In this document: positions 271 through 62,607 of the stretch, piece by piece
Layout: each line of letters begins with the position of its first letter
Numbering within the stretch: position 1 is the stretch's first letter
DNA from: a virus
Lineage: Duplodnaviria > Caudoviricetes
Reading direction: 5' to 3' (one strand)
DNA length: 64,000 bases
IMG/VR virus record: IMGVR_UViG_3300033067_002132
Coordinates: 96,001-160,000 of that record
Notes under the pieces: generated by a model
What the model was told of the DNA's origin: nothing
Database searches by the model: none
The model's input: the letters and a program-made list of their open reading frames with translations, nothing else
Made by a program: the position numbers and the translations under genes

Positions 271-296
271 TATTTTTAATACTTTTAATAAAATTT

Positions 297-302: not shown

Positions 303-310
303 TATATTTT

Positions 311-29432: not shown

Positions 29433-30203
29433 TTAATTTTTCTCCTTAATTCTATTTAAAATTTTTTCTTTAAAAGTATCATTATTTACTTCTGTTTCTG
29501 TTACTCTTAATAAATTTATTCCGATAGCTTTTAAATATGCAGATTTAGATTTATCTCTTTTAATAGATTTTTCTAAACTATGCCAGTAATCGCCATCTAC
29601 TTCTATTATTAAATTACACATCGGTATATAAAAATCGAATAACATTCTACCTGATACTAAATATTGTTGTATAAATTCTATATTTTGTTCTTTTAAAAAA
29701 TTCGCTGTTTTAATTTCAATTTTAGTAGGTTTAAATAATCCTTGATTTATTCTAGATTTAATACTTGCTTGTCGTAATTTTTCTCTTTTTTCTTCTGTAA
29801 AATTTGATTTAGAGTTTATAGACATTTTTTCTTTTGTTTCTTTAGAATGTGGTTTATTTTTATGCCAATTATTTCCATAAAAATGTTGTTTTTTATCTTC
29901 AGAAAGAATCCAGGTTTTACCCAAACAAGGATGTTTATTATTTTTCATATAATTTAATAATATCAACCTTGATTTTTCTATTTCTTCTGGAGTTCTTATT
30001 CTTTTTTTAGCAGAAATACTAGATTTAATTTTAGTTTCTTTAGATCTAATAAATTTACCTCTTCCCTTTTTTAATTTTAAATGTTTTACTCTTGATTGAA
30101 TACAAGATAAACCTTTATTTATTAATTTTTCTTCTATAATTTGTTTTACCGTTTTATTTTGATAATTTTCTATTAATATTAAATCTTCTTGTTCGGTCCA
30201 CAT
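29433..30203 (-). CDS. Free-standing homing-type endonuclease (NUMOD3 repeats plus Vsr/DUF559 nuclease)
   Basis: N-terminal WTEQEDLIL, HSKETKEKMS-type NUMOD3 repeats, and C-terminal PTKIE...FDFYIP..NLIIEVDGDYWH....RDKSK. Confidence 0.8.
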   Translation of the reverse strand: MWTEQEDLILIENYQNKTVKQIIEEKLINKGLSCIQSRVKHLKLKKGRGKFIRSKETKIKSSISAKKRIRTPEEIEKSRLILLNYMKNNKHPCLGKTWILSEDKKQHFYGNNWHKNKPHSKETKEKMSINSKSNFTEEKREKLRQASIKSRINQGLFKPTKIEIKTANFLKEQNIEFIQQYLVSGRMLFDFYIPMCNLIIEVDGDYWHSLEKSIKRDKSKSAYLKAIGINLLRVTETEVNNDTFKEKILNRIKEKN

Positions 30204-33851: not shown

Positions 33852-33882
33852 TTCTACCAATATTTACACAATATTGGTAGAA
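33852..33882 (-). promoter_or_regulatory. Perfect 13-bp inverted repeat with GTGTAA (33864-33869) at its loop; possible terminator and promoter
   Basis: ttctaccaatatt-tacac-aatattggtagaa, followed on the minus strand by TTTTTATTTTT and the ATG at 33840. Confidence 0.65.
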
Positions 33883-33906: not shown

Positions 33907-36051
33907 TTAAATTAACTTATTAATTTGTTCTATAACCATTTCGGGCGTAATTTCTTTTGTACATTCAAAATGTTTATCTGTTCCTTTATAAACCGGACAC
34001 CATTCCCAATCACCACGATCAAATTCAAATCTATTATCATTAAAACATCCATGACATACATTTTTATTAATTACTCTATATGGAGTTTGAAATTCACTAA
34101 AAGTATGAGAAAAACCACTAATTAAAATAGTAGATTTATTTAAAGCCCAAGATAACCACGATAAACCCGAACCTAATCCTATATTAAAATCCGCATCTTT
34201 AATATATTTAGCAATTTCTATTAATGATTCATTATGTATGTCTATAACACCATTAAATCCAGAAAGACTGTTTTCTTTAATAGCTAAAACTTTATATCCT
34301 TTATTATTTAAATAATTTATAATATTTTGCCATCCTTTATGTCTATTCCAATATTTTGCTTGTGCAGTAGATTCAGTAAAAAGACAAACATATTTATCTT
34401 TAATTTTCCTTTCATTATTAGGAATAAATATATTTGGTTTTAATTCAATAAAATCTAATCCAAGAATATCTGAAGCAATTTTTTGTAATGGAATTAATCT
34501 AGGATCATTTTTATGTATATTTTTATCTAAATAATTAAAAATACCTAAACGATAAGACGCATATAAATTATCAACAGTTGATCCAGGCTCAACAAATTCC
34601 ATATGACTATAAGTATTCTTAAAGAAATAATTATGAAAAGTAGAAACAACACAATGACAACTATGTTTTTTTCTAAATTCTTCTACATATGGAAACCAAG
34701 CCAATGTGTCGCCTAATGCACGACTTTCAAAAGCAAAGAAAACTCTTTTATTAAAACAAGAAAAAACATGTTCAAACAAAAAATTTTCTGATTCTGCTTT
34801 TATTTTATAGTTTGTAAAATCTTGTTTAGAAGATTTGGCCCAACTATTATTTCCTATTGTGGTTTGATATAAAATAGAATTAGAATCTTGATCAATAAAA
34901 GAAATTTTATTTAATCCCTCGTCTTTATTTTTTATTTCGATGAAAGCACCATCTATAAAATTAATAGATATTATTGGTTTAGAAGGTAATGGAGAGTTTT
35001 TTATTTCTTCTTTTTTTCTATAATCTGTATTATATATAAAATCTAATTTTCGTTCAAAAATATGTTGGCTATTTAAATAAAATTTTGAATTTCGAAATTT
35101 ATTATTAATATATTGATTATATAAATCTAAAGTTTTTTGTCCTGTTAATTTCCAATCATATTTCAAAGCGATTTCTCTTGCTTTAGATTGATACGATTGA
35201 TAATTACTTAAAATGATTTTAATTCCTTCGATAATTTCATTTTCATCTCTAGATGTTTTAATTATATCTTTTTCTCCTCCCCAATAACAACCAACAAAAG
35301 GAAGTCCGGTTGACATTGATTCGATCATTGTCAAATTAGGATGACCGGTTTCTATATTTGAAGGATGAAGAAAAATATGATGATCTTGATATAATTTAAT
35401 TAATTCTGATTCATTTTTGTCATATACAATATTTAATTTTGGATAATCTATAATGTTAACATCAAAAAAATCTTTATTACTATTGGTCGGTCCTGCGATT
35501 GTAATAAAATAATTTAATCTTTTTGCTACATTGATAGCAGGAAGAAAACCCTTTCGATCTTCTGTTTTATTTCTAAGAGTTCCATTATTAGCAACACATA
35601 ATAATTTAACATTATCGATAGGTGTTTTTCTTTCATAAAAAGAATATAGATTCGTATCTACTCCTAAAGGAAGAAAAACAGTATTTTCTCTAAAATCAAA
35701 ATAAGATAATAAAAATTCTCCAGGAAAAGTAGTAATAATAGATTTATCTATTGCCTCGCAATTATTTAAATAAACCTGAGATTCTTTTCCATATATACAA
35801 GCATGATGATCACACATCGAAAAGAAATATGGAATTCCTAAAGAAGCAAGTTCTCTAGCTTGATTTTCTATATAAACATGAACTATATCAAATTCTTTAT
35901 TTAAAAGTCTTTGATCGTGTAAATCAACAATGAAAAATTCATGACCTAAAGATTCGAAAAATAATTTATAATTCCAAATCATTTTTTCGATTGCTCCCCA
36001 ATTTTTAGGTGGGATTTCAATATTTCCTGTTAAAATATGCGCTATTTTCAT
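33907..36051 (-). CDS. GT4 glycosyltransferase fused to an Aah/TibC-family protein O-heptosyltransferase
   Basis: N-terminal GT-B (IPPKNWGAIE; HPSNIETGHPNLTMIESMSTGLP). The C-terminal half has RALGDTLAWFPYVEEF, TAQAKYWN..GW, FNIGLGSGLSWLSWA, LISGFS and the Cys motif VCHGCFN...WCP...FECTK typical of TibC/Aah. Confidence 0.85.
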   Translation of the reverse strand: MKIAHILTGNIEIPPKNWGAIEKMIWNYKLFFESLGHEFFIVDLHDQRLLNKEFDIVHVYIENQARELASLGIPYFFSMCDHHACIYGKESQVYLNNCEAIDKSIITTFPGEFLLSYFDFRENTVFLPLGVDTNLYSFYERKTPIDNVKLLCVANNGTLRNKTEDRKGFLPAINVAKRLNYFITIAGPTNSNKDFFDVNIIDYPKLNIVYDKNESELIKLYQDHHIFLHPSNIETGHPNLTMIESMSTGLPFVGCYWGGEKDIIKTSRDENEIIEGIKIILSNYQSYQSKAREIALKYDWKLTGQKTLDLYNQYINNKFRNSKFYLNSQHIFERKLDFIYNTDYRKKEEIKNSPLPSKPIISINFIDGAFIEIKNKDEGLNKISFIDQDSNSILYQTTIGNNSWAKSSKQDFTNYKIKAESENFLFEHVFSCFNKRVFFAFESRALGDTLAWFPYVEEFRKKHSCHCVVSTFHNYFFKNTYSHMEFVEPGSTVDNLYASYRLGIFNYLDKNIHKNDPRLIPLQKIASDILGLDFIELKPNIFIPNNERKIKDKYVCLFTESTAQAKYWNRHKGWQNIINYLNNKGYKVLAIKENSLSGFNGVIDIHNESLIEIAKYIKDADFNIGLGSGLSWLSWALNKSTILISGFSHTFSEFQTPYRVINKNVCHGCFNDNRFEFDRGDWEWCPVYKGTDKHFECTKEITPEMVIEQINKLI

Positions 36052-36317
36052 TGTAAATTATTTAAATATTCAGCGATAATATCTCCATGACAAATTTGAG
36101 GAGAACAAAAACAACCAAGTTTTTTATCTTTTAATTTTAATACAGCTTCTTTAAATATAGGATCTTTTTCTATTCTATGATTAAAATAACTACGATATTT
36201 TTCTATTACTTCTTTTCTTTTTCCATGCGTTCCTATTACATATGGATTTCCAAATAAACTTGGTCTTCCTATATAAACATCATATTTATCTAAATTTTTA
36301 TTTACTACGGTTGTCAT
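36048..36317 (-). CDS. DUF4326-family protein
   Basis: DVYIGRPSLFGNPY...LGCFCSPQICHGDII; coupled to both neighbours by ATGA overlaps. Confidence 0.8.
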   Translation of the reverse strand: MTTVVNKNLDKYDVYIGRPSLFGNPYVIGTHGKRKEVIEKYRSYFNHRIEKDPIFKEAVLKLKDKKLGCFCSPQICHGDIIAEYLNNLQ

Positions 36318-39004
36318 ACTTTTTTATGTCCTAACCAATTATTTAAACTTTCTTTTTTATCAAGTAAAGAAAATCCTTTTGCTTGCATAAATTGATAATT
36401 TTTAATTGTTCCTAATTTTTCTCCTTTTAAATAATCACTTACCCAAATATCAAAAACATCCCAAGGTGTTGTTTCTAATAATTCTTTGACTCTTTGATAA
36501 TTCGATTTTGTAATTAGATATGCATGCATTTCATAAATATTAGAACTTATATAATAAAGACCCATATCTTTAGTATCTTCATTATTATAAGCGGGACCGA
36601 AACTAAATAATCTAATTTTATATTTTTCAATATCATTATATAATCCATCTAATAATTCTATAAAAATATTTGGATCAGAAATTAAAACAGAATCACATTC
36701 AAAAATTAATAAACCATCTAATCCTTCTTCCCATTCATTTAAAATAGCATTTTTATGCGCTAAATAACATCCGTAATGACCAGGGGTTAATTTCATATGC
36801 CCAGGATCTAAACTAATATCATTTGGTCTAGAACAATTTTCTTTTGGGGGTAATAATGTATATGGATTATTTATATTTTGTTTATATTTTATTCCATATC
36901 TTTCTAATTGTTTAATCGATAGAATAGATTTCTTTTCTCTTTCAACTTCTGGTTGAGATAATAAATGGACACCTTTCAATTTAAATTTTGTTTTAATAGT
37001 ATTATTTTTTTTATTATGACAAATTAAAATAACATTTTCACAATTTGAATTAATAACATCGGTGATAACATCGCCAGCTTGACTATAAGATTCTATTTCA
37101 AAATTTAGTCTATTTAATTTATCTAATAGAATTTTTGTTTCTTCTTTTTTACTACTTAAATGGTGCAATTCTATTATTAATTCTTCTGTATTTATTAAAA
37201 CGTCATCATTTAAATATTCAATAACTTCATATTCTAATCCTTCTATATCTATTTTAATAAGATTAATAGGATAAGAAATTTTTTGTGTTTCAATAATATT
37301 TTCTATTGTATCAACATCTACAATTTCTAAGTCATAACCATCTTTATATTGAGGAATTTTATCTATTTGTTCTTTTAACATAGAACAAAGAGTAGTATTT
37401 TCTTTACAAAAATATAATACTTCTTGATTTGTTGTTTTCCCTATTGCTTTTTTAATAGGAATAACTCTTGAATCATTAGAAAAATTATTAACCAATGCAT
37501 TATATGCTCTTAGATTTGGTTCAATAGAATATATTTTTTTAGCGCCTTTAGATAAAGCAAACCGTGTAAAAACACCGCAATTAGCCCCTATATCAATTAC
37601 TGTATTATTAATTTTATCATTTAATGTAGTATATTTTTTTAAATAAAAGAATTCATAATAATTATACCATGTTGGATCTATATGATTAGAACCATTAAAT
37701 ATAAATGAATCATATGCTATCGCTTTATTATTAATAATTAATTCTTTTGATTCAATTAATTGATTATTTTGATCCCAAAATTCTATTAGAAAACCTTTAA
37801 AATTATTTAAATGACCAAAATTTAAATTTCCTACAGGGATAACCCAATATTCTAAATTTTCTATTATATCAGATTCATAACTATGAATAACGAGTTTAGT
37901 AAAAATATCTTTAATACTTATTCGAATATTATTTAAACTTTTTGATATAGAAAAATATATTTTATTTTCATCTTTAGAATAATAAAGATTATTAAAAGTT
38001 TCTTTTTTATTAAAAATAGAAAGATTATTTTTTTGTCTTATTTTCCATTGATTATAAAAGAAATTGATCTGATTTATACGATCTTCTTCATTTTCTGAAA
38101 GAAAGAAAACATTATCAGTATTATCATACATTCCATTATATACATCTAAATTATATAGTAAAATTGGTAAATTATAGCTTATTGCTTCTCTAATTACTAA
38201 AGGATTTGTTTCTTTATTATTAATATTTCCTTTTGAAGCAAAATAAAATAAATCCGCTGCATTATAAAAATTTTCTACATCTTTTCTTTCACCCCAAAGT
38301 TTACAATTTTTTGGTAAATTTTCTAATAATGGTTTCCAATAATATTCAAAATTTGGTGCAGTATTTCCTACAAAATGAAACATTATTTCTTTATCAAGAA
38401 AGAATTTTGCTATATTAATAATTTCTTTTTGATTTTTTCTTTCTGTAAATAAACCAATATTAATTATATGAAATTTATTATCATTTAATCCAAGATTTTT
38501 TAATCCCTGATTTTTATTTTTATTAATATGAATTAATGGATATTCTACTAATTCCATAGGAATATTTAAAGATTTAAATAAATCTATTTGATATTTACTT
38601 ACAAATACAAATTTATTAGGAAAGTATTTTTTATTATTTATATCAAAAGACGAATCATGAGATGTTTCATAAATTTGATATTTTCGATTTATTGTATAAA
38701 TATTATCTGCTAATTCTTTAGATAAAAAATATTCGGGCATTTCTTCTAAATGAATTATATCAGGATTAAAATCTTTAATTATATTAATTAATATATTTTT
38801 ATCTTGACCTAAACTAATAAATTGATCTTGATTTAATAATTCTATAATTTGATTTTTTTGAATCGTATATTCATCAGAAACATTATCATATTCTATAACT
38901 TTAACATCAAAGTTATTTATTAAATATTTTAATTTTGTTAAAAAATATTGAGGGCATCCACCAGTAGAAAGATGCGGAACTATACATAAAATTCGATTCG
39001 TCAT
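36314..39004 (-). CDS. Multidomain GT4 glycosyltransferase / FkbM methyltransferase / GT25-like protein
   Basis: HLSTGGCPQY, GLFTERKNQ and ETNPLVIREA (GT4); VIDIGANCGVF and IKIDIEGLE (FkbM); GHYGCYLAH...LIFECD (GT25-like). Confidence 0.8.
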   Translation of the reverse strand: MTNRILCIVPHLSTGGCPQYFLTKLKYLINNFDVKVIEYDNVSDEYTIQKNQIIELLNQDQFISLGQDKNILINIIKDFNPDIIHLEEMPEYFLSKELADNIYTINRKYQIYETSHDSSFDINNKKYFPNKFVFVSKYQIDLFKSLNIPMELVEYPLIHINKNKNQGLKNLGLNDNKFHIINIGLFTERKNQKEIINIAKFFLDKEIMFHFVGNTAPNFEYYWKPLLENLPKNCKLWGERKDVENFYNAADLFYFASKGNINNKETNPLVIREAISYNLPILLYNLDVYNGMYDNTDNVFFLSENEEDRINQINFFYNQWKIRQKNNLSIFNKKETFNNLYYSKDENKIYFSISKSLNNIRISIKDIFTKLVIHSYESDIIENLEYWVIPVGNLNFGHLNNFKGFLIEFWDQNNQLIESKELIINNKAIAYDSFIFNGSNHIDPTWYNYYEFFYLKKYTTLNDKINNTVIDIGANCGVFTRFALSKGAKKIYSIEPNLRAYNALVNNFSNDSRVIPIKKAIGKTTNQEVLYFCKENTTLCSMLKEQIDKIPQYKDGYDLEIVDVDTIENIIETQKISYPINLIKIDIEGLEYEVIEYLNDDVLINTEELIIELHHLSSKKEETKILLDKLNRLNFEIESYSQAGDVITDVINSNCENVILICHNKKNNTIKTKFKLKGVHLLSQPEVEREKKSILSIKQLERYGIKYKQNINNPYTLLPPKENCSRPNDISLDPGHMKLTPGHYGCYLAHKNAILNEWEEGLDGLLIFECDSVLISDPNIFIELLDGLYNDIEKYKIRLFSFGPAYNNEDTKDMGLYYISSNIYEMHAYLITKSNYQRVKELLETTPWDVFDIWVSDYLKGEKLGTIKNYQFMQAKGFSLLDKKESLNNWLGHKKV

Positions 39005-39022
39005 CGTAGATATTATAATCTA

Positions 39023-42000
39023 TTATTTCTTTTCTTCTAATATTTTAATTCTTCGTTTTAATTTTTCTATTTCTGCGCTTAATTCTTTTACAGAATTAAC
39101 TAATAAATAAGTAATAGGAGAATCATAAACATGATATATATCTGTTCTTTCCGTATCATTAGGATCAAGAAATACATTTTTCTTTACTATACAATAAGGA
39201 ATATTTTTAAGCTGATCTTGAGCTATAATACCTATACCTTTTAATCCTTCTTGTGTTTCTCCACGACCATTATATTCAAATTCAAAAGGATTAATTTTAT
39301 TTACTATATCTAATCCTTGTTTAAAAGATTTAATATTTCTTTTTGTTCTTGCATCTGAAACAGATCCAGAAGAACCATTTGCTCCTGATGATCCTGATGT
39401 TCCTGATGTTCCAGAAGAACCCGATGTTCCGGAAGATCCTCTAGTTCCTGAAGTTCCCGAAGAACCTCTAGTTCCTGAAGTTCCCGAAGAACCTCTAGTT
39501 CCTGAAGTTCCAGAGGTTCCTGCGGTTCCTGAAGTACCAGAAGATCCCGAAGGTCCACTTGATCCTGTAGCTCCATTTAAACCTGATGTACCGCTAGATC
39601 CACCCCCTCCTGCTCCAGAAGTTCCAGAAGACCCCGCAACGCCTGTAACACCTGATGTTCCTGCGGTTCCCGAAGAACCAACAGCACCATTAGCACCTGA
39701 TGTTCCTGCGGTTCCCGAAGAACCAACAGCACCATTAGCACCTGATGTTCCTGCGGTTCCCGAAGAACCTGATGCTCCATTTGCTCCAGAACTTCCTGAA
39801 GTACCACGAGTACCTGAAGTACCAGAAGATCCTGTTCCTCCATCTGCTCCGTTTGCTCCTGAAGAACCAGAAGAACCTGAAGAACCAGATGCTCCTGAAG
39901 TTTTTTGTTTAATAATTCCATTTTCTATAATTAGAAAATTAGAACTAGTTCCTGTATTAACTTTTTTAAGTTCTACTTCATTTGCTATAGAAAAAATATT
40001 ATCATGTGTCGTAAAAGGTCTATCTGAAATTTCAAAACCACCTACTACCGTTATTCCTGAATAACTAGAATAATTTGTAATAATTAATGGTTTAATATAT
40101 CTAGTAGAAGGTGCAAAAGAAGTATATGCGAAACCAGTATCTTGACCCGAAATTATTCCATAATACCATTTTCCTGTTACAGTAGGGGTTGTATCAGCCG
40201 CAATAAAATATTTTAATCCACCAGAATTTGTATTAATTAAATTAAAACCACTATCAAAACATAAAGCACCAGCATAAAACCGTCCAGAAGATGTATTTGC
40301 CCCACTTAAATGAGTTCTAGCTGCCCAAATTTTTCCATAATATAAAGTATCTGGATTAACCGCGATATATTGAGGAATAGCTAACCAATTTCCCGCAAAA
40401 GTTCCCTGATGTTTAATTTGATGTAATACTCCTCCTGGTACAGAATAACCTGTTAATTCAGGTAAAAGTTTAATTGTAGTATTACTCATGGGGACTGAAG
40501 AAATTCCTGATGTCCACATTCCTGTTGTATATCCCCATGTTTCGCTAGAAATAGGAATAAGATTGGCACCAGCTAATCCACCCATTTGTAATTTAATAAA
40601 TCCTGTTACTCTTAAACTATCATTAATTAATACATCAGGTTCATTTAAAGAATTAATTCCTGAAGTAAATAAATTTTGTATATATGCTTCTTGAAATCTA
40701 TAATTATCTGCTCCTAAATTATAGGATTTAGTTACAGCAGGTCCAATATCTCCATTAACTTGTAATAAAAAGGTATTTGTTTCAGGAGTAACACCGATAC
40801 CGAAAGCATTATTTTTAAAAGAATATATAAATTGATCACCAGCAAATTTTGCTAAAATATTATTTATTCCTGATCCTGTAGGTCCATCTGTTGTAACGGT
40901 AATAATTGTATTTTGACCATGAGCACCATCTAAAGTTCTTCCACCGGCATTAATTTTAAAAATATCATCACCACTATTTAAACCACTAGGAAGATTAATA
41001 CTTCCGTTCCAACGATCATAATGAATAATAAAACGATCATTAATAGCTCTATTTAATATAGAATGACCCCCACCTATTACAGTATTTGTATAAGTTCTAT
41101 ATCCCGCTCCATTAAAATTAATTTGATTTATACTTGTAGCATCAAGATCTCCACTTGTAGGAGTTTGAATATAATCTCCTAAAATATGTACTGTTGTTTG
41201 AGGATTGGTTGTACCAATACCAATATTAGAACTAATTTCATGAATAGGAGTTGTTGTATTTCCTATAGCAGTAGCAGAGGTAAATTTAACTATTCTATTT
41301 GTTGTTCCTGATACAGAAATACTACTACCAGATGTTCCCGAACTTCCTGAAGTTCCCGAACTACCTGATGTTCCTCTCGTTCCTGATGTCCCACTTGATC
41401 CAGAAGAACCATCCGCACCATTTATTCCACTTGTGCCTGAAGATCCTGTTAAACCAGAACTGCCAGACGTTCCTCTAGTACCCGAAGTTCCTGATGATCC
41501 TGTTACCCCTGAAGAACCAGAACTTCCTGAAGACCCATCGTTTCCTGATATTCCACTTGTTCCAGAAGAACCTGTAACCCCCGAACTACCTGAACTACCT
41601 CTTGTACCAGATGTTCCAGATGATCCGGTTAATCCAGAGGAACCAGAACTTCCTGAAGATCCAATTGCTCCGTCAAGGCCACTAGTTCCACTCGATCCTG
41701 TAACACCAGAACTTCCACTTGTTCCTCTAGTTCCTGAGGTTCCACTACTTCCTGAAGAACCACTAGAACCCGAACTACCTGAAGATCCGCTTGTTCCTGA
41801 AGACCCATTAATTCCACTAGAACCGGATGAACCACTAGATCCAGAACTACCTGATGATCCTGAACTTCCTGAATCTCCTGCTCTTGCAAATGTTAACACA
41901 ATAGAATCATCTGTATTAAAAAGACCAGATCCAGTTATGTATGAAACGTTAGCAGCTATATATCCAGGACTAAAAGTTGTATTAGAAGTAATATTAAAAA

Positions 42001-45000
42001 TAGAAAAAATAGAAGAATTATATTCGCCAAAAATTCTTAATGTTCCTTTTATATTATTCGTACTATAATCTAATCCGCTTAACCAATTAAAAATATTCGC
42101 ACCATCAGCATTAATATGATCGATATATAATTTATTGATACTTGCGTATGTCGTATTATTAAATTTTAAATATCCATTTCCTGGATCTACATTAGATGTT
42201 CCTGTATTAAATAAATATAATTGAGAGTCACCACCAAAAAGACCATTAGAACCAGATGTTCCTGAACTTCCTGTAAGTCCTGAAGATCCTGATGTTCCTC
42301 TTGTTCCACTAGTTCCAGAAGATCCAGAAGAACCACTAGATCCCGAACTTCCACTAGAACCATCATTTCCTGTTAACCCTGAAGTTCCACTAGATCCTGA
42401 TGTCCCGCGTGTGCCTGATGTACCTGAAGTACCACTTGATCCCGTTAACCCGCTTGAACCAGAAGAACCCGATGAACCATTAGCTCCATCAATACCTGAT
42501 GTTCCTGATGATCCAGATGTACCTCGTGTTCCTGATGTTCCTGATGATCCAGTTAAACCGCTTGAACCAGAAGATCCAGAAGATCCGCTACTTCCTGAAG
42601 AACCATCATTACCATTAATTCCACTTGTTCCACTAGATCCAGACGTTCCTCTAGTTCCCGATGTTCCACTTGACCCTGTTAAACCACTAGATCCTGAAGA
42701 ACCAGAACTACCCGCGACACCATCTATACCTGATGTTCCACTTGAACCTGACGTTCCTCTAGTACCAGAAGTTCCTGAAGAACCAGTAACTCCTGATGAT
42801 CCGGAACTACCAGAAGATCCAGTTAATCCACTTGTACCCGAACTTCCTACTACTCCATCTATACCAGAAGTACCTGATGTACCTCTGGTTCCTGATGTAC
42901 CAGAAGATCCATTAATACCTGATGAACCCGAACTTCCTGAAGAACCAGTAGCACCCGAAGTTCCCGATGATCCTGATATACCTGAACTACCTGAAGAACC
43001 GCTTGAACCAGATGTACCCGCTGTTCCAGAAGAACCACTAGTACCTCTAGTACCTGAAGTCCCTGAAGAACCAGAAGAACCAGAATTTCCCGCTCTACTA
43101 AAAGTTAAAATAATATTATCATTTAAAGCAAATAATCCTGTACCTAATACATATTCTACATTTATAGCGGCATAACCAGAATTATAAATATTATTTCCTG
43201 TAATATCAAATTGATGAAAAATAGAACTATTATATTCTTGAAAAATTCTTAATGTTCCTTTTATATTATTATTACTTAAATCTAATCCGCTAATCCAGGG
43301 TAATATATTTATATTATTTTTATTTAAATTATCAATATAAATTTGATTAGCTCCAGAATATCCTGAAAAATTAAATCCTAAATATCCCGTTCCAGGATCT
43401 ATATTTAATATTCCTGTATTAAATAAAAATGGTATAGAATCGCCACCAAAAAGACCATTAGAGCCTGAGCTTCCCGATGTGCCTCTTGTACCAGAAGTAC
43501 CAGAACTACCTGTAATTCCTGAAGATCCTGAGCTTCCTGAAGATCCAGAATTACCGTCTATACCTGATGATCCTGATGTTCCTCTTGTGCCTGATGTTCC
43601 TGAACTTCCGGTTATACCAGATGAACCAGAACTACCAGCAGATCCAGCGGAACCAGGATTACCATCTAATCCTGAAGTTCCTGACGTTCCCGAAGATCCA
43701 TTTATACCAGAACTACCTGAAGTTCCTCTAGTACCAGACGTACCAGAACTTCCTGAAGATCCACTATTTCCTGAAGTTCCTGAAGAACCTGATAAACCAG
43801 AAGATCCAGGTGTTCCAGGCGCCCCGTCTATTCCTGATGTACCACTAGAACCTGTTAATCCACTTGATCCTGAAGTTCCGCGAGTACCAGAAGTACCGGA
43901 TGATCCATTAATTCCGGAAGATCCAGAACTACCACTAGAACCAGAAGTCCCGCTGCTTCCTGTTAAACCGCTTGATCCTGATGAACCATCTATACCTGAA
44001 ATTCCTGAAGTACCACTAGATCCTGAGGTTCCTCTTGTTCCAGATGTCCCCGAACTACCACTACTACCAGAACTTCCTGAAGAACCAGAACTGCCAGATG
44101 TTCCGCTAGATCCTGAATTACCATCGATACCCGAAGATCCACTAGAACCTGAAGTACCTCTAGTACCCGATGTACCTGAACTTCCTGTTAATCCTGAAGA
44201 TCCCGAACTACCAGAAATTCCTGAAGATCCAGGTGTTCCCGGTATACCATCTAAACCAGAAGTTCCAGAACTACCACTAGATCCAGAAAGACCAGAACTT
44301 CCGCTAGTTCCTCTAGTACCAGATGTTCCAGAACTTCCTGTTATTCCACTACTACCTGAAGAACCAGACGTTCCACTAGTTCCTGAACTTCCATCTATAC
44401 CAGACGTTCCAGATGTTCCTCTTGTACCAGAAGTACCTGATGTACCAGAAGAACCCGCGGGACCACTTGAACCGGTTGCACCATCTAACCCAGACGAACC
44501 AGATGAACCACTACTTCCTGAAGATCCTGAACTACCACTTGTACCAGAAGTTCCTCTAGTTCCAGAAGTTCCAGAGGAACCACTTGTTCCAGAACTTCCA
44601 TTATTACCAAACATAGTAAATGAAATTACTAAATTATCATTTAAATTAAAAAGACCACTTCCTATAATATAATTAACAAAAATTTGAGCATATCCAGAAT
44701 TATAAATATTATTACCGGTTATATTAAAAGATGTAAAATTAGAAGAATTATATTCTTTAAAAATTCTTAAATTTCCTTTAGGATTACTATTAGAAATATC
44801 AAAACCAGAAATCCAAGAAACAATATTTAATAAATCTTTATTATAGTAATCTATACATATTTGATTAACACCAGAATAACCTGAATAACCCGAATAGATT
44901 CCAGAATGATTAAAAGAAAAATAACCACTACCAGGATCAACATTTAAAATACCTGTATTAAAAATATATAATTGAGAATTTCCACCAAATAAACCACTAC

Positions 45001-46477
45001 TTCCTGATGTTCCACGGGTCCCAGAGGTTCCAGAAGAACCAGAAGCACCCGTATTTCCGTCTATTCCTGAAGTTCCCGAGGTTCCTCTTGTACCAGACGT
45101 TCCTGAAGATCCTGTTTGTCCTGAACTTCCACTTGAACCAGAAGATCCTGTTTGTCCAGAGCTACCCGAAGTTCCACTTGAACCGTTATTTCCATCTATA
45201 CCCGAAGTACCAGAAGTTCCTCTTGTACCAGAGGTTCCTGAACTACCAGTTATTCCACTACTTCCCGATGATCCAGAAGTACCTGATGTTCCAGAACTTC
45301 CTGAAAATCCAGAGGTGCCTGAAGATCCAGATATTCCACTGGAACCTGAAGAACCACTAGAACCGTTTATTCCTGATGTACCTGATGATCCTGTTATACC
45401 TGAAGATCCTGCGCTTCCACTACTTCCTGAAGATCCTGAATTACCAGATGTTCCACTACTTCCCGTAAGTCCAGAGGAACCACTACTTCCTGTAATTCCT
45501 GATGAACCACTACTACCAGAAGATCCATTAATACCAGATGAACCAGAAGTTCCACTAGATCCTGTTTGTCCAGAACTACCTGAAGACCCACTACTTCCTG
45601 TTACTCCGCTTGATCCAGAAGTTCCACTTGAACCATTTAAACCAGATGAACCACTACTACCAGAAATTCCACTAGAACCACTAGTTCCTGAACTTCCTGT
45701 TAATCCAGAAGATCCTGCGCTACCACTAGATCCGCTTGATCCAGAGGTTCCAGATGAACCTGAACTTCCTGATGTTCCCGAAGTACCAGAAGATCCAGAT
45801 GTACCTCGTGTTCCAGACGTTCCTGAAGATCCATTAGCTCCAGAACTACCTGAAGAACCATTATTTCCTGATGTTCCACTACTTCCTGTTAATCCAGATG
45901 TTCCAGAACTTCCTATATTACCTGCACGAGCAAAAGAAATAACAATTCTATCATTTAAATCAAAATTATTATTAGAAATTAGTCCACTAACACCTAATTT
46001 TGTATAAAGTCCAGAAGGAATGTTATTTCCTGTTATTAAATAATCTGCAAAATAAGAACTATCGTATTCTTTAAATATTCTAATAGTTCCTTTTATATCA
46101 TTATTGCTATCGTCTAAACTATTTATCCAACCACTAATATTAACAAAATTAGCATTATTATGATTAATAAAAATTTTATTTACCGCGGAATATGTACTAC
46201 TATTAAAAGAAAGATATCCACTTCCAGGATTTGTATCAACAATACTTGTATTAAATTTATATAAATGAGAATCTCCACCAAATAATCCTGAACCAGAAGC
46301 ATTAAATGATCCACCGCCACCCCCCGCACCTGTTATTAATACCCAAACACCACTTTCTTTAATATATTGTTTATAAGTGGTAAATTCATGATAAATTGCA
46401 CCATCTAATACTCCTGATGGTTTTGTATCAGATGGTAAACCTACAAATCTATCTCCAGCATATTTTCTAAGTGCCAT
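39023..46477 (-). CDS. Giant collagen-like (Gly-Ser-Ser/Gly-Thr-Ser) tail fibre with four repeated globular knobs and a C-terminal intramolecular chaperone (peptidase S74-like)
   Basis: Long G-X-Y tracts, four GLFGG(D/N)S..FNT..DPG.GY domains, a NIGIGTTNP fibre motif, and SDARTKRNIK...GIIAQD followed by a coiled coil. Confidence 0.85.
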   Translation of the reverse strand: MALRKYAGDRFVGLPSDTKPSGVLDGAIYHEFTTYKQYIKESGVWVLITGAGGGGGSFNASGSGLFGGDSHLYKFNTSIVDTNPGSGYLSFNSSTYSAVNKIFINHNNANFVNISGWINSLDDSNNDIKGTIRIFKEYDSSYFADYLITGNNIPSGLYTKLGVSGLISNNNFDLNDRIVISFARAGNIGSSGTSGLTGSSGTSGNNGSSGSSGANGSSGTSGTRGTSGSSGTSGTSGSSGSSGTSGSSGSSGSAGSSGLTGSSGTSGSSGISGSSGSSGLNGSSGTSGSSGVTGSSGSSGSSGQTGSSGTSGSSGINGSSGSSGSSGITGSSGSSGLTGSSGTSGNSGSSGSSGSAGSSGITGSSGTSGINGSSGSSGSSGISGSSGTSGFSGSSGTSGTSGSSGSSGITGSSGTSGTRGTSGTSGIDGNNGSSGTSGSSGQTGSSGSSGSSGQTGSSGTSGTRGTSGTSGIDGNTGASGSSGTSGTRGTSGSSGLFGGNSQLYIFNTGILNVDPGSGYFSFNHSGIYSGYSGYSGVNQICIDYYNKDLLNIVSWISGFDISNSNPKGNLRIFKEYNSSNFTSFNITGNNIYNSGYAQIFVNYIIGSGLFNLNDNLVISFTMFGNNGSSGTSGSSGTSGTRGTSGTSGSSGSSGSSGSSGSSGLDGATGSSGPAGSSGTSGTSGTRGTSGTSGIDGSSGTSGTSGSSGSSGITGSSGTSGTRGTSGSSGLSGSSGSSGTSGLDGIPGTPGSSGISGSSGSSGLTGSSGTSGTRGTSGSSGSSGIDGNSGSSGTSGSSGSSGSSGSSGSSGTSGTRGTSGSSGTSGISGIDGSSGSSGLTGSSGTSGSSGSSGSSGINGSSGTSGTRGTSGSSGLTGSSGTSGIDGAPGTPGSSGLSGSSGTSGNSGSSGSSGTSGTRGTSGSSGINGSSGTSGTSGLDGNPGSAGSAGSSGSSGITGSSGTSGTRGTSGSSGIDGNSGSSGSSGSSGITGSSGTSGTRGTSGSSGSNGLFGGDSIPFLFNTGILNIDPGTGYLGFNFSGYSGANQIYIDNLNKNNINILPWISGLDLSNNNIKGTLRIFQEYNSSIFHQFDITGNNIYNSGYAAINVEYVLGTGLFALNDNIILTFSRAGNSGSSGSSGTSGTRGTSGSSGTAGTSGSSGSSGSSGISGSSGTSGATGSSGSSGSSGINGSSGTSGTRGTSGTSGIDGVVGSSGTSGLTGSSGSSGSSGVTGSSGTSGTRGTSGSSGTSGIDGVAGSSGSSGSSGLTGSSGTSGTRGTSGSSGTSGINGNDGSSGSSGSSGSSGSSGLTGSSGTSGTRGTSGSSGTSGIDGANGSSGSSGSSGLTGSSGTSGTSGTRGTSGSSGTSGLTGNDGSSGSSGSSGSSGSSGTSGTRGTSGSSGLTGSSGTSGSNGLFGGDSQLYLFNTGTSNVDPGNGYLKFNNTTYASINKLYIDHINADGANIFNWLSGLDYSTNNIKGTLRIFGEYNSSIFSIFNITSNTTFSPGYIAANVSYITGSGLFNTDDSIVLTFARAGDSGSSGSSGSSGSSGSSGSSGINGSSGTSGSSGSSGSSGSSGSSGTSGTRGTSGSSGVTGSSGTSGLDGAIGSSGSSGSSGLTGSSGTSGTRGSSGSSGVTGSSGTSGISGNDGSSGSSGSSGVTGSSGTSGTRGTSGSSGLTGSSGTSGINGADGSSGSSGTSGTRGTSGSSGTSGSSGTSGSSISVSGTTNRIVKFTSATAIGNTTTPIHEISSNIGIGTTNPQTTVHILGDYIQTPTSGDLDATSINQINFNGAGYRTYTNTVIGGGHSILNRAINDRFIIHYDRWNGSINLPSGLNSGDDIFKINAGGRTLDGAHGQNTIITVTTDGPTGSGINNILAKFAGDQFIYSFKNNAFGIGVTPETNTFLLQVNGDIGPAVTKSYNLGADNYRFQEAYIQNLFTSGINSLNEPDVLINDSLRVTGFIKLQMGGLAGANLIPISSETWGYTTGMWTSGISSVPMSNTTIKLLPELTGYSVPGGVLHQIKHQGTFAGNWLAIPQYIAVNPDTLYYGKIWAARTHLSGANTSSGRFYAGALCFDSGFNLINTNSGGLKYFIAADTTPTVTGKWYYGIISGQDTGFAYTSFAPSTRYIKPLIITNYSSYSGITVVGGFEISDRPFTTHDNIFSIANEVELKKVNTGTSSNFLIIENGIIKQKTSGASGSSGSSGSSGANGADGGTGSSGTSGTRGTSGSSGANGASGSSGTAGTSGANGAVGSSGTAGTSGANGAVGSSGTAGTSGVTGVAGSSGTSGAGGGGSSGTSGLNGATGSSGPSGSSGTSGTAGTSGTSGTRGSSGTSGTRGSSGTSGTRGSSGTSGSSGTSGTSGSSGANGSSGSVSDARTKRNIKSFKQGLDIVNKINPFEFEYNGRGETQEGLKGIGIIAQDQLKNIPYCIVKKNVFLDPNDTERTDIYHVYDSPITYLLVNSVKELSAEIEKLKRRIKILEEKK

Positions 46478-46500
46478 TTCCTTTTACCTTTATAGAATAA

Positions 46501-46506
46501 TTACAC
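46501..46506 (-). promoter_or_regulatory. GTGTAA candidate late-promoter motif (giant fibre)
   Basis: Directly after the J stop codon; followed by AAGGTAAAAGGAA and the ATG at 46477. Confidence 0.65.
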
Positions 46507-49500
46507 TTATGTTTGCGAACTTATTATAACAGATTCAGAATCATCACCGAAACTATTAGTTAAAGTTCTTCTTCCATCAATTTGTGCTGTTGATAATTTC
46601 CAAATATTATTATTATCGTTAAAATTAGTAAAAATTAATTGTTGACCTATTTTCATAGTATTTGTGACTCCACTAAAGTTAATACTTGTTATATTACTTA
46701 ATGGAAATCCAGTTCTTAACATACTATTATAATTATTAATTATCTCCATGTCAAAAGAATCTATTACAGAAAAACAAATATATCCAGTTGGAGAAAAATA
46801 TCGATCTTCATAAGGAATAGGAGTTTGAAAAGATTTAGTATAAGAATTATAATTAGAATAACCTGTATAAATATTAAATTGACTAGGAATAGGATTATTT
46901 CCTGTTATATTTTCTCCTGAAAAAAGACCTGTACTAAAATAAATATAACCACCAATAATATCTTTTGGCATAGTTCCTGAAACATATGTAATATTAATAT
47001 TTAAACCACAATCAATAAAATGTCTAGTTATATATCCACTTACTATTTTATTAATACCTGTAGATAATGCTAATCCAGTAATTCTTTCATTATTTATATA
47101 TAATAAATCATATCCATAAGGATTTGTCCAAGGTTCATGATATCCAGTAGATAAATCTAAATAATTTCCAGCAGAAGTTCTTCCAAAATTATCAACCGCT
47201 TCAACTACAACATCATATTTTCTAAATGGCCCACCACTTGCTAATACATTATCTTTAAAATCAAAACTTTTAGATATTTCATTAGAATAAATAGGTATTC
47301 CTGTATATTCAAAATAAATAGTTGAAGAAGGAGTATTTGTATAAGAAGGTTCTCTTATAGATAATCTAAAATTAAAATTTGTTGGCAATTGTTCTCCTGT
47401 TGAACCCATTTGCCATGTAAAAACTGGACTTAATTCATAAAATCTATCAATATTTGTTTTAGATGCTCCAACTATACCATCATATAACCCTGTTGGATAA
47501 AATTGACCAGTATTAATGTTTAAACTACTAATAACAACATCTAAAATAGGAAAAATTTGAGGAATATTAAAAAATCCTGTTATACTATCATTTGAATATG
47601 TATTATTTATATAATTATATCCCCATAAACTATAAATAAAATCTCCTGTATTTTCAAAAGAATAATCATAATTAGAAATCTCAGGTGATAAAAATCCAAC
47701 CAAATATTTATTATCAGGTACAAAATTATGATCTATTTTATCACCCGAAGGACTAATAAAAATAGCAGTATGAGTGTTATTTACAGAATTATTATCTTTT
47801 GTCCAATTTAAAGATACCTTTTTAGAACTAATACTTACATTATCTACTGTTGTATATCCATATGTGGGTTTAGAAGGAATTGTTTGTGGTAATAATGAAT
47901 TTCTATCAAAATTAATTCCTGATTCTATTTCTATATATTTTTGTGCATTATATTGTAAACCAATAACGTTCAATTCATTTTCTTTTTCTTCTATATTAAT
48001 AATTCTATATTGATCTTGATATGGATCTAGAAATTTACTTGTTGCATCATAAGTTCTATCTCCCGAATTCATATGAATAGACCAAACAGTATTTTTTGTT
48101 ATTTCATAATTTTCTATATCAAATGGATTAGGATTAAATTCAAGTTGTAAATAAGAGTCTTTATTTATACAATTAGTTGGTGTAGCATTAAAAATTCCAC
48201 TTTGAATTAATCCTCTTCTTATATTAGAAATTTCACTACTATTCATATCAGAAATAGCAGTCGCATTATAATTATATGTAGGAGTAATTAAATTTAATAC
48301 ATAATTAACACCCGTATTAATAATTGGTATAGAATCTAATTTAATTATTGCTTTATTAGAAATAGATTCTAATTCAAAATCTTTAATTCTTCCCGCGTAT
48401 CGATATAATTTTTTATTATTATCTATTACATTTATTACGTCTCCGGGTTTTAAATAACTTGCTTCTAATCCCGCATTAAAACTAATCGTTTCTGTTTCTA
48501 AATTTTCTGTTAATAAAACCGCTCTACCAAATCTTAATGCTTGTCCACGACTAGTACATCCAATAGCATCAATTTCTATTTCCCTTATTCCATATTTTCT
48601 AATCCCATCTACATCTTCTACATATTCAATCGCAGGTTTATAAAAATTTCTTTTATCATTATATCTTACTATGGCTACGGTATGTCTTACTCTTCTACTA
48701 CTACTAGCATAACCAAAATTACCATCTTTAATATTTGAATTTGTAAATGTTGTAATGGGATCTTTTGGAGAATCTTGTGTCGCAGAAATTACTCCATTTC
48801 CAAAATAAACTAAACCTCTAAAAATCGAAGCCATATTATTAATAACTTTATAAGCTTCTTCTTTATTATTTAAAATAATATTACAAGCAAATCTTGGTTC
48901 CCATCCACCATATCCATCAGGAACTAAAACATCACAATATTTACTTATTTCATATAACGACCATTTATCTACATATGTACTATCAATATATTTTCCTAAT
49001 CCGTAATTTTCATTAGTAATAATATCATAAAAGCACCAAGCCGGATTATCTGTCCAATATTTGTTTTCTTTAAAAGAACCATCCCAAGGAGTAGATTCAT
49101 TATATCTTTTTAAAATAGGATCATAATTAGATGGAATTTTTACTTTTATTAATCTTGTATCAAAAAATCTATTAGGAATTTGACTAAAATATTCCGAATT
49201 AAAACGAGAACGAACTATAGCAGAATTTGGATTAGTATGTATATCTTCATAAATTTCTGTAATACTATCTACATAAATAGTATTTCTTTCTAATGAAGTT
49301 AAAGAATCAGGACTTCTTCTTGCTATTTTAATTTCCCATCCTAGAAAATCTCTATTATTTACTGTAGGATCTTTGCCATAAAAAGAAATTTTATCTGTTT
49401 TAATAAATCCATATTGAATTTTACCAGTAAATTGAACCTTTTTAGCTAATGTAAAATTTTTTGGATTATTTAATGCATTAGAATAAATAGGGCGAAAATA

Positions 49501-51721: not shown

Positions 51722-52486
51722 TTAAATTAATGTTGCTGTATTAGCGGTAGAATTTTCACTATTTGATTTAACAATATATGTATAAGAAAGAATAGTAATC
51801 GATCCTGATCCGAATTCTACATCTAAATCTCCTCCTGTATATCTATAAAGTAAACTATTTTCAGAAGATTGAGTATAATAAATATCATATGTAGAAGAAA
51901 TTGTTTGACTTCCGACAATTAAACGACCATATCCAACCGGAACAGGCCCACCTTCTTCTGTTGTATTATATGGACCATTAAATAAATAAGAAGCTTTAGA
52001 TTTTTGTATATCTTTATAATTATCAAATTTTGGTGGACTTGTTAAAAGAGAAATCACACCTCCAGCTAACAAAGCTATACCTGCTACGATTAAATATGGT
52101 TGACCAAATAATCCTATAACAATTAAAATAACTCCTAAAATAATACCTAAAATTCCTAAAAAATTACTTCCTGATCCTTCTAATATAGGTATAATATCAA
52201 TAGTTTTTAATGAATCTTCTTTAAATGTAATCATTAATTCAGAATTTTTTATAGTATCAATTTCTTCTATATTTACTGGTTTTTCTGAAATAAAATCTCT
52301 TCCATTGATTAAAACTCTATATTTAATTCCTTGTTTATCTTTTTCTAAAAGATATTTATAAAGTTTTCTTTTACTTAAAACTTCTATAGCACGCATAGCT
52401 TCCCCAACAGAATTAACACATAAACTCCATTGTTTACCTATATTTTCTCCTAAATCTCCATGTAAAGTTATATTTGTTTTATGCAT
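51722..52486 (-). CDS. Tail assembly protein I-like
   Basis: ITLHGDLG...V.SVGEAMRAI, IDIIPILEGSG, a hydrophobic segment, and SYLFNGPYNT..EGGPVPVGYGRLIVGS. Confidence 0.85.
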   Translation of the reverse strand: MHKTNITLHGDLGENIGKQWSLCVNSVGEAMRAIEVLSKRKLYKYLLEKDKQGIKYRVLINGRDFISEKPVNIEEIDTIKNSELMITFKEDSLKTIDIIPILEGSGSNFLGILGIILGVILIVIGLFGQPYLIVAGIALLAGGVISLLTSPPKFDNYKDIQKSKASYLFNGPYNTTEEGGPVPVGYGRLIVGSQTISSTYDIYYTQSSENSLLYRYTGGDLDVEFGSGSITILSYTYIVKSNSENSTANTATLI

Positions 52487-53213
52487 ATGGTGTCAAAAAT
52501 AAAAAGGTTCTTTTAGTATAAAAATCATTAAATAATTCTATAGTAGAATTTTTATCTTGTGGATGATGTAAAAATTCTTTATTATTTAAATAAATTCCAA
52601 AATGATTTGGTTCATAATTTTCTATATATTTAAAAATAATAATATCTCCATATTTTGGTAATTCTGTTTGTTTTAATATTTTATTTAAAATTCTATTAAT
52701 TTGTGTTTGTATTATATATGGATCTTCTTTATACCAATTTTTATTAATTTTAAAATTTGGAAGATTTATATTAAATTGATCTTTATAAAATTTTTGAATT
52801 AATGTATAACAATTTTGATTTTCTATGTTAAAATTTTTTCCTATAAAATCAATTAATTCATAAGAACCAATTTTTGGATCGAATTCATCAAAAATATCAT
52901 GATTAATATTATAACTTATATAATTAATATTATGATTAATAGCGTTTAATCTATCAAAATTTGTTAATTTTTTTTCATCATTTATATGAGAGTGATAACA
53001 ACCAACAATTTTTCCATTATCCGAAGCTTCTAAATAATCAAAACAATCTATAGTAAAATTTTTATTTTTTTCTTGACTTATATTTCTACATTTTAAAGCA
53101 ATAAAATTATTATCTTTATTTATTATTAATCCACACACCTCTTCAATAGGATTAGATAAAGCATGTTTTTTAATATGTTCAATAATATTTTTATTCTTAA
53201 TTAAAAAATTCAT
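52479..53213 (-). CDS. Tail tip assembly protein K-like (JAB/MPN + NlpC/P60)
   Basis: EEVCGLI...YHSH (JAB) and NCYTLI...HFGIY....FLHH (NlpC/P60). Likely start MNFLIK at 53213. Confidence 0.85.
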   Translation of the reverse strand: MNFLIKNKNIIEHIKKHALSNPIEEVCGLIINKDNNFIALKCRNISQEKNKNFTIDCFDYLEASDNGKIVGCYHSHINDEKKLTNFDRLNAINHNINYISYNINHDIFDEFDPKIGSYELIDFIGKNFNIENQNCYTLIQKFYKDQFNINLPNFKINKNWYKEDPYIIQTQINRILNKILKQTELPKYGDIIIFKYIENYEPNHFGIYLNNKEFLHHPQDKNSTIELFNDFYTKRTFLFLTPYA

Positions 53214-54857: not shown

Positions 54858-54881
54858 TCCTTTTACCTTATATTAATTATA

Positions 54882-54910
54882 TTACACTTTTATTCAAAAA
54901 AATTGTGTAA
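54882..54910. promoter_or_regulatory. Back-to-back divergent GTGTAA motifs (54882-54887 minus; 54905-54910 plus)
   Basis: Each motif points toward its own gene (ATG at 54857 minus; ATG at 54918 plus) in a 60-nt divergent gap. Confidence 0.7.
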
Positions 54911-54917
54911 TTTTAAT

Positions 54918-56503: not shown

Positions 56504-56648
56504 TCTATGTCTTCTTTAAATAATATTAATGATATATCTAGATTAATTATAAGTGGTATAGAAAAATTCTATATTTCTTCTTCTAATATAGATTTTAATT
56601 CAGAGGGATTATCTAAACCTACAATAACAATAAGTAGAACTTTTTAAT

Positions 56649-62606: not shown

Positions 62607-62607
62607 A

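Follow-up and report, generated by a model that had tools for sequence, protein, structure and literature searches.

We analysed a 64,000-nucleotide (nt) stretch of DNA (the window), corresponding to bases 96001-160000 of the single IMG/VR virus record IMGVR_UViG_3300033067_002132, which comprises 193,745 bp, has a G+C content of 29.4% and is rated complete by CheckV. We focused on a minus-strand unit of four open reading frames (ORFs) that encodes a giant collagen-like tail fibre and, directly behind it, the enzymes of a putative protein O-glycosylation module (Table 1). A reading of the window made from the sequence alone (the sequence-only reading) had described these ORFs as one apparent operon and had proposed that the enzymes transfer heptose from the host to the fibre. 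All four ORFs were recovered, and they are closely packed: an 18-nt gap separates the fibre gene from the gene for a protein of 896 amino acids (aa), and the ORFs for an 89-aa and a 714-aa protein each overlap the preceding gene by 4 nt. The gene for a lambda J-like protein lies directly upstream of the fibre gene at a distance of 29 nt, which places the module in the tail-tip operon.

The fibre contains 452 Gly-X-Y triplets, i.e. 1356 residues, in six segments; GSS occurs 191 times, GTS 108 times and GTR 28 times. The hundreds of Ser and Thr residues previously noted in GSS and GTS triplets were borne out by a count of 693 Ser/Thr residues in Gly-X-Y. Ser and Thr occupy 77% of the X and Y positions, and Pro is found at only seven of these 904 positions. 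The stabilising proline, hydroxyproline or charged residues that are usual at X and Y in bacterial collagens are rare, and the only frequent one is Arg in Y, in the 28 GTR triplets. In host-guest peptide studies, Arg in Y is the most stabilising non-imino residue of the triple helix. Thus, its frequent occurrence in the fibre fits selection for a real triple helix.

Four of the collagen-like segments (residues 186-500, 624-1013, 1130-1417 and 1534-1719) alternate with globular modules of approximately 115-125 aa, the four copies of which share 55-73 identical positions over 113-120 aligned. The distal segments (residues 2195-2373) follow a 475-aa globular region and are themselves followed by a Peptidase_S74 intramolecular chaperone or autoproteolysis domain (residues 2374-2421) with the motif SDARTK. 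Based on this domain and the position of the gene after the J-like gene, the protein is recognised as a trimeric side tail fibre. It is the sole product with Gly-X-Y repeats encoded by the 194-kb genome and also by far its most Ser/Thr-rich large protein (36% compared to a median of 11%).

The last gene of the unit encodes a protein in which an N-terminal GT-B domain of the GT4 type (GT4a) is fused to a TibC/Aah-type O-glycosyltransferase domain (residues 362-713 of 714). The latter matched the equivalog model TIGR04414 with 319.6 and 321.5 bits (cut-off 200) over profile positions 13-374 of 374, and TibC in the PDB (4rap/4rb4) with an E value of 5e-61 over TibC residues 25-386 of 406. In TibC, Asp110 is the catalytic base, Thr226 and Lys230 contact the beta-phosphate, Trp305 contacts O4 of the heptose, and Cys339, Cys342, Cys358 and Cys370 are the iron ligands of a 1Fe-0S finger; mutagenesis showed that D110, K230, W305 and the four Cys residues of the iron finger are needed (PMC4358343). 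The catalytic and substrate-binding residues are kept in the phage protein as D448, T562, K566 and W632. Moreover, C666, C669, C685 and C697 align with the four iron ligands, in agreement with the intact Cys ligands reported by the sequence-only reading. Among 70 non-identical viral homologues, the Asp, the Trp and the four Cys residues are invariant, the Lys is kept in 68, and the position of the Thr is occupied by Thr or Ser.

Other features of TibC differ in the phage enzyme. Arg286 of TibC contacts N1 of the adenine and is the proposed basis of ADP-sugar specificity, a contact described as weak in a 3.9 Å structure; Pro300 (Ser294 in Aah) selects between the D,D and L,D forms; and a beta-hairpin thumb with Phe265 and Val266 at its tip joins dimers into a dodecamer (PMC4358343). 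The position of Arg286 is Ile613 in the phage enzyme and is occupied by Arg in only 32 of the 70 viral homologues and by other residues in 38, while Arg is kept in all nine autotransporter-linked bacterial enzymes from a genome scan. The position of Pro300 is Gly627 here, and is Gly in 56 of the 70. Similarly, the thumb region has a length of 14 residues in the phage enzyme and of 13-19 in all viral homologues checked, compared to 23 residues with the pattern G.G..WN.IP.G.EDFTG in all nine autotransporter-linked enzymes. In a quick maximum-likelihood tree, the autotransporter-linked bacterial enzymes formed one clade with full support, and the TibC domain of this phage grouped weakly with a viral contig and Microcystis phage Mel-JY01; because the tree is unrooted, we claim no direction of transfer. 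The same tree contains a very divergent clade, also with full support, made up of the second copies from three contigs (L030, L050 and L072) that encode two TibC-like domains in tandem.

By sequence, the phage enzyme is thus confirmed to belong to the TibC/Aah family, but it falls into a separate, thumb-less branch, in which the quaternary structure and the preferred nucleotide may not be those of TibC. No membrane segments were detected in the module enzymes, in which the maximum 19-residue hydropathy was 1.27.

We scanned IMG/VR with six TibC-domain peptides, which gave 142 confirmed stretches, and kept 80 loci. The GT4a domain, which scores below threshold in Pfam, is fused or adjacent to TibC in 46 of these 80 loci, and a profile built from 22 of its homologues matched GT-B glycosyltransferases in the PDB with an E value of 6e-8.

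The 896-aa protein had been read as a fusion of GT4, FkbM and GT25-like domains, and this architecture was upheld. A second GT4-type domain (GT4b) and an FkbM-family methyltransferase domain score above their cut-offs; the latter also matched Pfam Methyltransf_21 (PF05050) with an E value of 4e-11 and 43.7 bits (cut-off 22.7), and homologues of GT4b are present in 57 of the 80 loci. The C-terminal 226 residues are weak by sequence and clear by predicted structure. They scored 17.5 bits with Pfam PF01755, below the cut-off of 24; 12 of 17 homologues matched PF01755 at E<=1, the best with 1.4e-4, and the domain is conserved in 27 related loci. In a Foldseek search with an AlphaFold2 model of the domain (mean predicted local distance difference test score, pLDDT, 87.6), the top eight matches were all human COLGALT1, with E values of 2e-8 to 1.6e-7 and template-modelling (TM) scores of 0.56-0.63. 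The DxD-type motif FExD is invariant in the domain. GT25-like is thus an apt label at the level of the fold.

The 89-aa DUF4326 protein had also been listed in the apparent operon, and a part for it in the system was rejected. A homologue is encoded in none of the 80 related loci and the gene is, therefore, outside the conserved module and probably a passenger. A published prediction assigns DUF4326 a role as a phosphatase of ADP-ribose derivatives in virus-host conflict (PMC9503650).

Table 1. Features of the fibre-glycosyltransferase locus and of the related regions discussed in the text. Positions refer to the window unless stated otherwise.
Feature	Position	Strand	Basis or remark
Collagen-like tail fibre, 2484 aa, proposed glycan acceptor	39023-46477	-	Pfam Collagen (PF01391), 580 bits, 16 stretches
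Four collagen-like segments of the fibre	41321-45922	-	alternate with globular modules
Distal collagen-like segments of the fibre	39359-39895	-	after globular region
Peptidase_S74 (PF13884) domain of the fibre	39215-39358	-	33.8 bits, cut-off 22
ORF of 896-aa protein	36314-39004	-	
GT4-type (GT-B) domain GT4b, 896-aa protein	37985-39004	-	Glycos_transf_1, 44.1 bits, cut-off 26.4
FkbM-family methyltransferase domain, 896-aa protein	37097-37603	-	TIGR01444, 79.9 bits, cut-off 37.7
GT25-like GT-A domain, 896-aa protein	36317-36994	-	invariant FExD motif (alignment)
DUF4326 protein, 89 aa	36048-36317	-	Pfam, 91.8 bits
ORF of 714-aa protein	33907-36051	-	
GT-B (GT4-like) domain GT4a, 714-aa protein	35032-36051	-	Pfam, sub-threshold, 21.8 bits, cut-off 27
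TibC/Aah-type O-glycosyltransferase domain, 714-aa protein	33913-34968	-	TIGR04414 and PDB 4rap/4rb4
Intrinsic-terminator-like hairpin, 13 pairs and T-run	33852-33882	-	directly after last stop
TTGACA-17-TATAAT, sigma-70-type, perfect match	46726-46754	-	inside 3' end of J-like gene
Lambda J-like central tail fibre/host-specificity protein, 1737 aa	46507-51720	-	phrog_31 'central tail fiber J', E 7e-138
Tail protein K, NlpC/P60 and JAB domains	52479-53285	-	lambda-type tail-tip block
Tail protein L	53213-54328	-	lambda-type tail-tip block
Sugar-nucleotide cluster	genome 169166-177570 (L084 9166-17570)		outside window; GDP-mannose 4,6-dehydratase (328 bits) and tailoring genes
GmhA-like sedoheptulose-7-phosphate isomerase, L175	G005 254288-254746		330-kb contig
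GmhA-like sedoheptulose-7-phosphate isomerase, L176	G002 88560-89015		220-kb contig

The sequence-only reading had asked whether TibC-like genes and Ser/Thr-rich fibres co-occur across phages, and the answer was positive: TibC-like genes adjoin the genes of Ser/Thr-rich, Pro-free collagen-like fibres in diverse phages. An ORF with Gly-X-Y repeats is present in 35 of the 80 TibC-anchored viral loci; in nearly all of them Ser and Thr account for 60-96% of the X and Y residues, and the distance between the ORF and the transferase cassette is usually 4-700 bp. When the TibC domains were clustered at 60% identity, 12 of 17 clusters included a Ser/Thr-rich collagen-like ORF, which lies upstream on the same strand in seven clusters, downstream on the same strand in three and downstream on the opposite strand in two. 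The recurrent order is fibre, GT4 (with or without FkbM or GT25-like domains), GT4 and TibC, the last two being fused or adjacent. Because the linkage survives rearrangement, it points to function rather than to inherited synteny. In a control built around the J-like protein, none of the pattern matches encoded a relative; the argument draws on the closeness of the genes, on dereplication and on the diversity of the arrangements.

A protein search returned 4598 homologues of the TibC domain at E<=1e-10, in many of which it is joined to an FkbM or GT4 domain. Only four of 50,697 deposited phage genomes encode the domain, namely those of Mel-JY01, a cultured phage of Microcystis, and of three huge phages that are uncultured. 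In Mel-JY01 (PP395634.1; L164), the gene for a GT4-TibC fusion of 1226 aa, which carries the annotation methyltransferase FkbM, is preceded by that of a "structural protein"; ahead of both we found an unannotated ORF (2-3049, plus strand), extending from the first bases of the record, of more than 1016 aa with 606 Gly-X-Y residues and 40% Ser+Thr. Two deposited minus-strand hypothetical coding sequences (1-651 and 739-2298) lie opposite this collagen-like ORF and are probably shadow ORFs. In the 735-kb phage LR756501, a two-gene cassette adjoins an ORF with 105 Gly-X-Y residues. Our literature search for TibC or O-heptosyltransferase together with phage returned nothing relevant, and we found no published description of the pairing.

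One clade with a T4-type terminase (L018, L015, L033, L034, L039, L045, L046, L053 and L062) has no collagen-like ORF nearby; its cassette lies directly behind an ORF of more than 2000 aa that is rich in Ser, Thr and Gly and has a CBM_5_12 match. This giant ORF also contains an intein-like segment and is followed by GT4-GT25-like and TibC genes and then by the gene of a protein of 1141 aa that has a cytidylyltransferase-like domain at its N terminus. Similarly, bacterial genes for autotransporter heptosyltransferases (BAHT) adjoin Gly/Ser/Thr-rich ORFs of 800-2300 aa without Gly-X-Y repeats.

Our results establish what the domains are, that the catalytic residues are conserved, how the operon is built and that enzyme and fibre genes are linked across phages; from these we infer an acceptor, a donor, an order of steps and a benefit for the phage. 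The module probably O-glycosylates the collagen-like side tail fibre of the phage itself. The fibre would be synthesised late, along with the tail-tip proteins of the lambda type, and the soluble enzymes encoded directly behind it would act in the cytoplasm, where the TibC/Aah domain would place the first sugar on hydroxyls of Ser and perhaps Thr. This sugar would probably be a heptose from the nucleotide-heptose pool of the host. The glycan would be extended by the GT25-like domain and both GT4-type domains, for which a likely donor, among others, is a methylated 6-deoxyhexose that the sugar cluster of the phage would derive from GDP-mannose, and the FkbM domain would methylate the glycan. 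Extension and methylation, as suggested by the sequence-only reading, are plausible given three further glycosyltransferase domains, the FkbM domain and the GDP-mannose-derived sugar cluster.

The resulting dense glycan would hydrate and stabilise the proline-free triple helix, and shield or tune the surface of the fibre. Collagen peptides with glycosylated Thr support that sugars can stabilise a triple helix without proline. That they do so in this fibre is our suggestion, and the literature on BclA is consistent with it (PMC8968730). A bolder generalisation is that the thumb-less TibC-type enzymes make up a large, mainly viral branch of the family, the natural acceptors of which would be proline-free Gly-Ser/Thr-Ser fibres; O-glycans would then replace hydroxyproline, and folding of the fibre would need both the phage transferases and a nucleotide-sugar precursor of the host envelope. 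We regard this generalisation as tentative and rather doubtful.

Several observations weigh against glycosylation of the fibre. The case for it is comparative throughout. The loci were found by similarity to proteins of this phage, which makes for a biased sample of related members. Many loci end short; where at least 3 kb of sequence was available on each side, about half of the loci (16 of 30) hold a collagen-like ORF. In the reverse test, which was anchored on the collagen-like segment, a TibC gene lies within 10 kb in 14 of 78 loci; the remaining 64 loci for Ser/Thr-rich collagen-like fibres have no TibC gene nearby, and such fibres are thus commoner than the enzyme. The known acceptor of TibC is a beta-helix and not a collagen-like chain, and the viral enzymes lack the thumb that builds the substrate-threading dodecamer of TibC. 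Moreover, tail-fibre regions are recombination hot spots, in which glycosyltransferases also gather for other reasons (PMC7029224). Finally, a search of the whole genome detected no GmhA-type isomerase, no cytidylyltransferase-like domain, no rfaE domain II and no HldE-type gene. The phage thus has no ADP-heptose pathway of its own, and the Ile in place of Arg286 makes a nucleotide other than ADP possible.

The donor is the part of the proposal for which an alternative is strongest, and it is quite conceivable, if short of probable, that the TibC-like domain glycosylates the fibre with a sugar other than heptose, e.g. from a GDP- or UDP-hexose or from a GDP-deoxy-sugar of the phage. This alternative overlaps with the proposal above and differs from it in the donor alone. 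The substitutions at positions 286 and 300 are consistent with it, and so is the presence in this phage of a GDP-mannose 4,6-dehydratase with tailoring enzymes. The sugar cluster further includes genes for Methyltransf_24, a sugar C-methyltransferase (Methyltransf_13/14), a 3,5-epimerase-like cupin, an NAD-dependent epimerase/reductase and an FkbM methyltransferase, as well as four unassigned ORFs; it could supply the extending transferases with a methylated 6-deoxyhexose. In addition, 12 of 14 TibC-bearing phage records tested lack GmhA, and none was detected in the complete genomes tested, including Mel-JY01 and the 735-kb phage. Against a non-heptose donor, the counterparts of W305, which contacts O4 of the heptose, and of T226 and K230 are conserved; the Arg286 contact was described as weak; and two related phages do encode GmhA, with near-threshold scores of 208 and 179 bits (cut-off 209). 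These two phages fit the use of heptose in the family, for which heptose is a plausible sugar; host ADP-heptose as the donor in this phage is an assumption. One of the two GmhA-bearing contigs also encodes a 208-aa cytidylyltransferase-like protein. Arg at position 286 did not correlate with GmhA, as one of the GmhA phages has Arg and the other Val.

The main rival to fibre glycosylation is that the transferases modify the host envelope, i.e. the lipopolysaccharide (LPS) core, the O-chain or the capsule, for instance to block superinfection, and lie near the fibre gene because both belong to a hypervariable host-recognition island. This is the standard interpretation of glycosyltransferases in the host-recognition clusters of aquatic phages (PMC7029224), and it agrees with GT9, GT4 and GT25 being classic LPS families and with the presence of two more glycosyltransferase-like genes 13 kb upstream. 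However, the TibC-type domain is recognised by an equivalog model for protein O-glycosyltransferases and has retained the iron finger, through which TibC binds its protein substrate, and the enzymes are without membrane segments. Moreover, the pairing with a Ser/Thr-rich collagen-like ORF holds over three gene orders and in very different types of phage, which co-residence in an island does not predict. We therefore consider envelope modification unlikely.

Glycosylation might instead be directed solely or predominantly at virion proteins other than the fibre, such as the capsid, the tail tube or further structural proteins rich in Ser and Thr. Several ORFs of the structural region reach 20-28% Ser+Thr, some TibC-bearing phages have only other giant proteins and no collagen-like ORF nearby, and a system of this kind would resemble the glycosylation of capsid and tail tube in mycobacteriophages. 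However, the adjacency is specific to the gene for the collagen-like or giant fibre, and the Ser/Thr residues in the uniform repeat of the fibre far outnumber those of any other protein of the genome, so that this alternative appears distinctly improbable. Modification of phage DNA to evade host restriction deserves almost no weight. The genes lie in the late tail operon and not with the replication genes, they are linked to the fibre gene, and we know of no member of the TibC, GT4 or GT25 families that acts on DNA. Protection of DNA is, nonetheless, a role often assigned to phage glycosyltransferases (PMC10202952).

Among characterised systems, the closest family is BAHT and the closest functional precedent is BclA3-SgtA. 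The phage TibC domain shares the N-terminal barrel, the GT-B core and the four-Cys iron finger with the BAHT enzymes of the TibC-TibA and Aah-AIDA-I systems of E. coli (PDB 4RAP/4RB4). In both cases, a soluble enzyme is encoded beside a very large, repetitive, Gly/Ser/Thr-rich surface protein, which BAHT hyper-glycosylates in the cytoplasm. However, the acceptor of BAHT is the beta-helix of the adjacent autotransporter, whereas no autotransporter is present here and the neighbour is a collagen-like fibre with an S74 chaperone. Besides the shorter thumb, the Ile at position 286 and the Gly at the stereoselectivity position, the phage TibC domain differs from TibC and Aah in its fusion to a GT4-type domain and its association with further glycosyltransferases and a methyltransferase. 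Mycobacteriophages encode glycosyltransferases that O-glycosylate their own capsid and tail tube on short C-terminal Ser/Thr tracts, in actinobacterial hosts. That system has experimental proof and involves other enzyme families, acceptors and hosts, while the present module is known from its genes.

The BclA filaments of Bacillus anthracis and B. cereus and BclA3-SgtA of Clostridioides difficile resemble the phage locus in that a transferase gene lies next to the structural gene of a collagen-like surface filament. In BclA3, the collagen-like GPT repeats are modified on Thr with O-linked N-acetylglucosamine (GlcNAc) by the adjacent SgtA (PMC7157674), and glycosylation of BclA is thought to aid the hydration network of the triple helix (PMC8968730). 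By contrast, the priming enzyme of BclA3-SgtA is a GT-A/tetratricopeptide repeat O-GlcNAc transferase that uses UDP-GlcNAc and not a BAHT, and the BclA repeats are proline-rich GPT on a spore rather than GSS and GTS with almost no proline on a virion. The human collagen hydroxylysine galactosyltransferase COLGALT1 (GLT25D1; GT25), the best structural match of the C-terminal domain of the 896-aa protein, shares the context of collagen-type repeats, and Mimivirus, which has the collagen-modifying enzyme L230, is a precedent for a virus that glycosylates collagen-like proteins of its own (PMC8968730). However, COLGALT1 and L230 glycosylate hydroxylysine, whereas the repeats of the phage fibre are almost without Lys and no lysyl hydroxylase was seen; the sequence similarity of the phage domain to GT25 falls below the Pfam cut-off.

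Several signals flank the unit. The terminator-like hairpin directly after the last stop closes it. A GTGTAA motif, which had been placed at its start, is present 29 nt upstream of the ATG of the fibre gene (46496-46501). In the whole genome, 28 of 55 copies of the motif lie within the 11% of the sequence that is intergenic, and 28 of 254 genes have a copy on their own strand 5-60 nt (often 14-17 nt) before the start. Thus, GTGTAA is a gene-start-associated motif in this genome, and it is a candidate for a phage-specific promoter or translation signal. In the terminator hairpin that follows the TibC-like gene, the loop consists of one copy of the motif (33859-33864). A perfect sigma-70-type TTGACA-17-TATAAT is located approximately 250 nt upstream of the start of the fibre gene; it is a consensus match only, and promoter-like sites are in total as many as expected from shuffled sequence. 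The transcript of the fibre and glycosyltransferase genes could start at this site, and read-through from the J-like gene into the fibre unit is also possible.

The gene neighbourhood contains further features. The tail genes on the minus strand are split by a three-gene island on the plus strand (54822-58751), the last gene of which encodes a 700-aa protein with IPT/TIG domains. The two further glycosyltransferase-like genes upstream of the tail-tip block (59494-60675 and 60678-62627, both minus strand) encode a protein of 393 aa, the N terminus of which holds no more than the C-terminal half of a GT9 fold, and a protein of 649 aa with a weak GT4 match and DUF4214. The former, the product of a second GT9-like gene, was rejected as a TibC relative (E 0.1 to the TibC domain and 0.59 in the PDB). 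Downstream of the tail-tip, fibre and transferase genes, and on the same strand, lies an ORF of 3457 aa (7414-17787, minus strand). A PHROG scan of eight downstream ORFs assigned no families except a homing endonuclease; the HNH/homing-endonuclease-like ORF is located at 29433-30203 (minus strand) among otherwise unassignable genes.

A megablast search with 13 kb of the region against the 50,697 phage records gave no matches, and the phage has no close cultured relative among them. The DnaB-like helicase matched only Bacillus phage proteins with approximately 25% identity, and the J-like protein matched proteins from phages of Proteobacteria with 27-33% identity, which weakly suggests a Gram-negative host. 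No tRNA was detected within the window, and Terminase_6C gave no match in the search made for host inference. The Gram-negative host proposed in the sequence-only reading is an assumption that draws solely on the assumed ADP-heptose donor and these weak similarities of the J-like protein.

Glycosyltransferases encoded beside the tail-fibre genes of aquatic phages are usually taken to alter host LPS or phage DNA. If the fibre is glycosylated, virion glycosylation would be widespread well beyond the mycobacteriophages, and the TibC/Aah family would have a second natural class of acceptors, which is possibly the main one. Moreover, glycosylation would provide an answer to how proline-free Ser/Thr "collagens" form stable triple helices. 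Because the module is present in the cultured phage Mel-JY01, these ideas are directly testable. If they are correct, host range as well as recognition by antibodies and receptors would depend on a glycan layer that is invisible in genome annotation.

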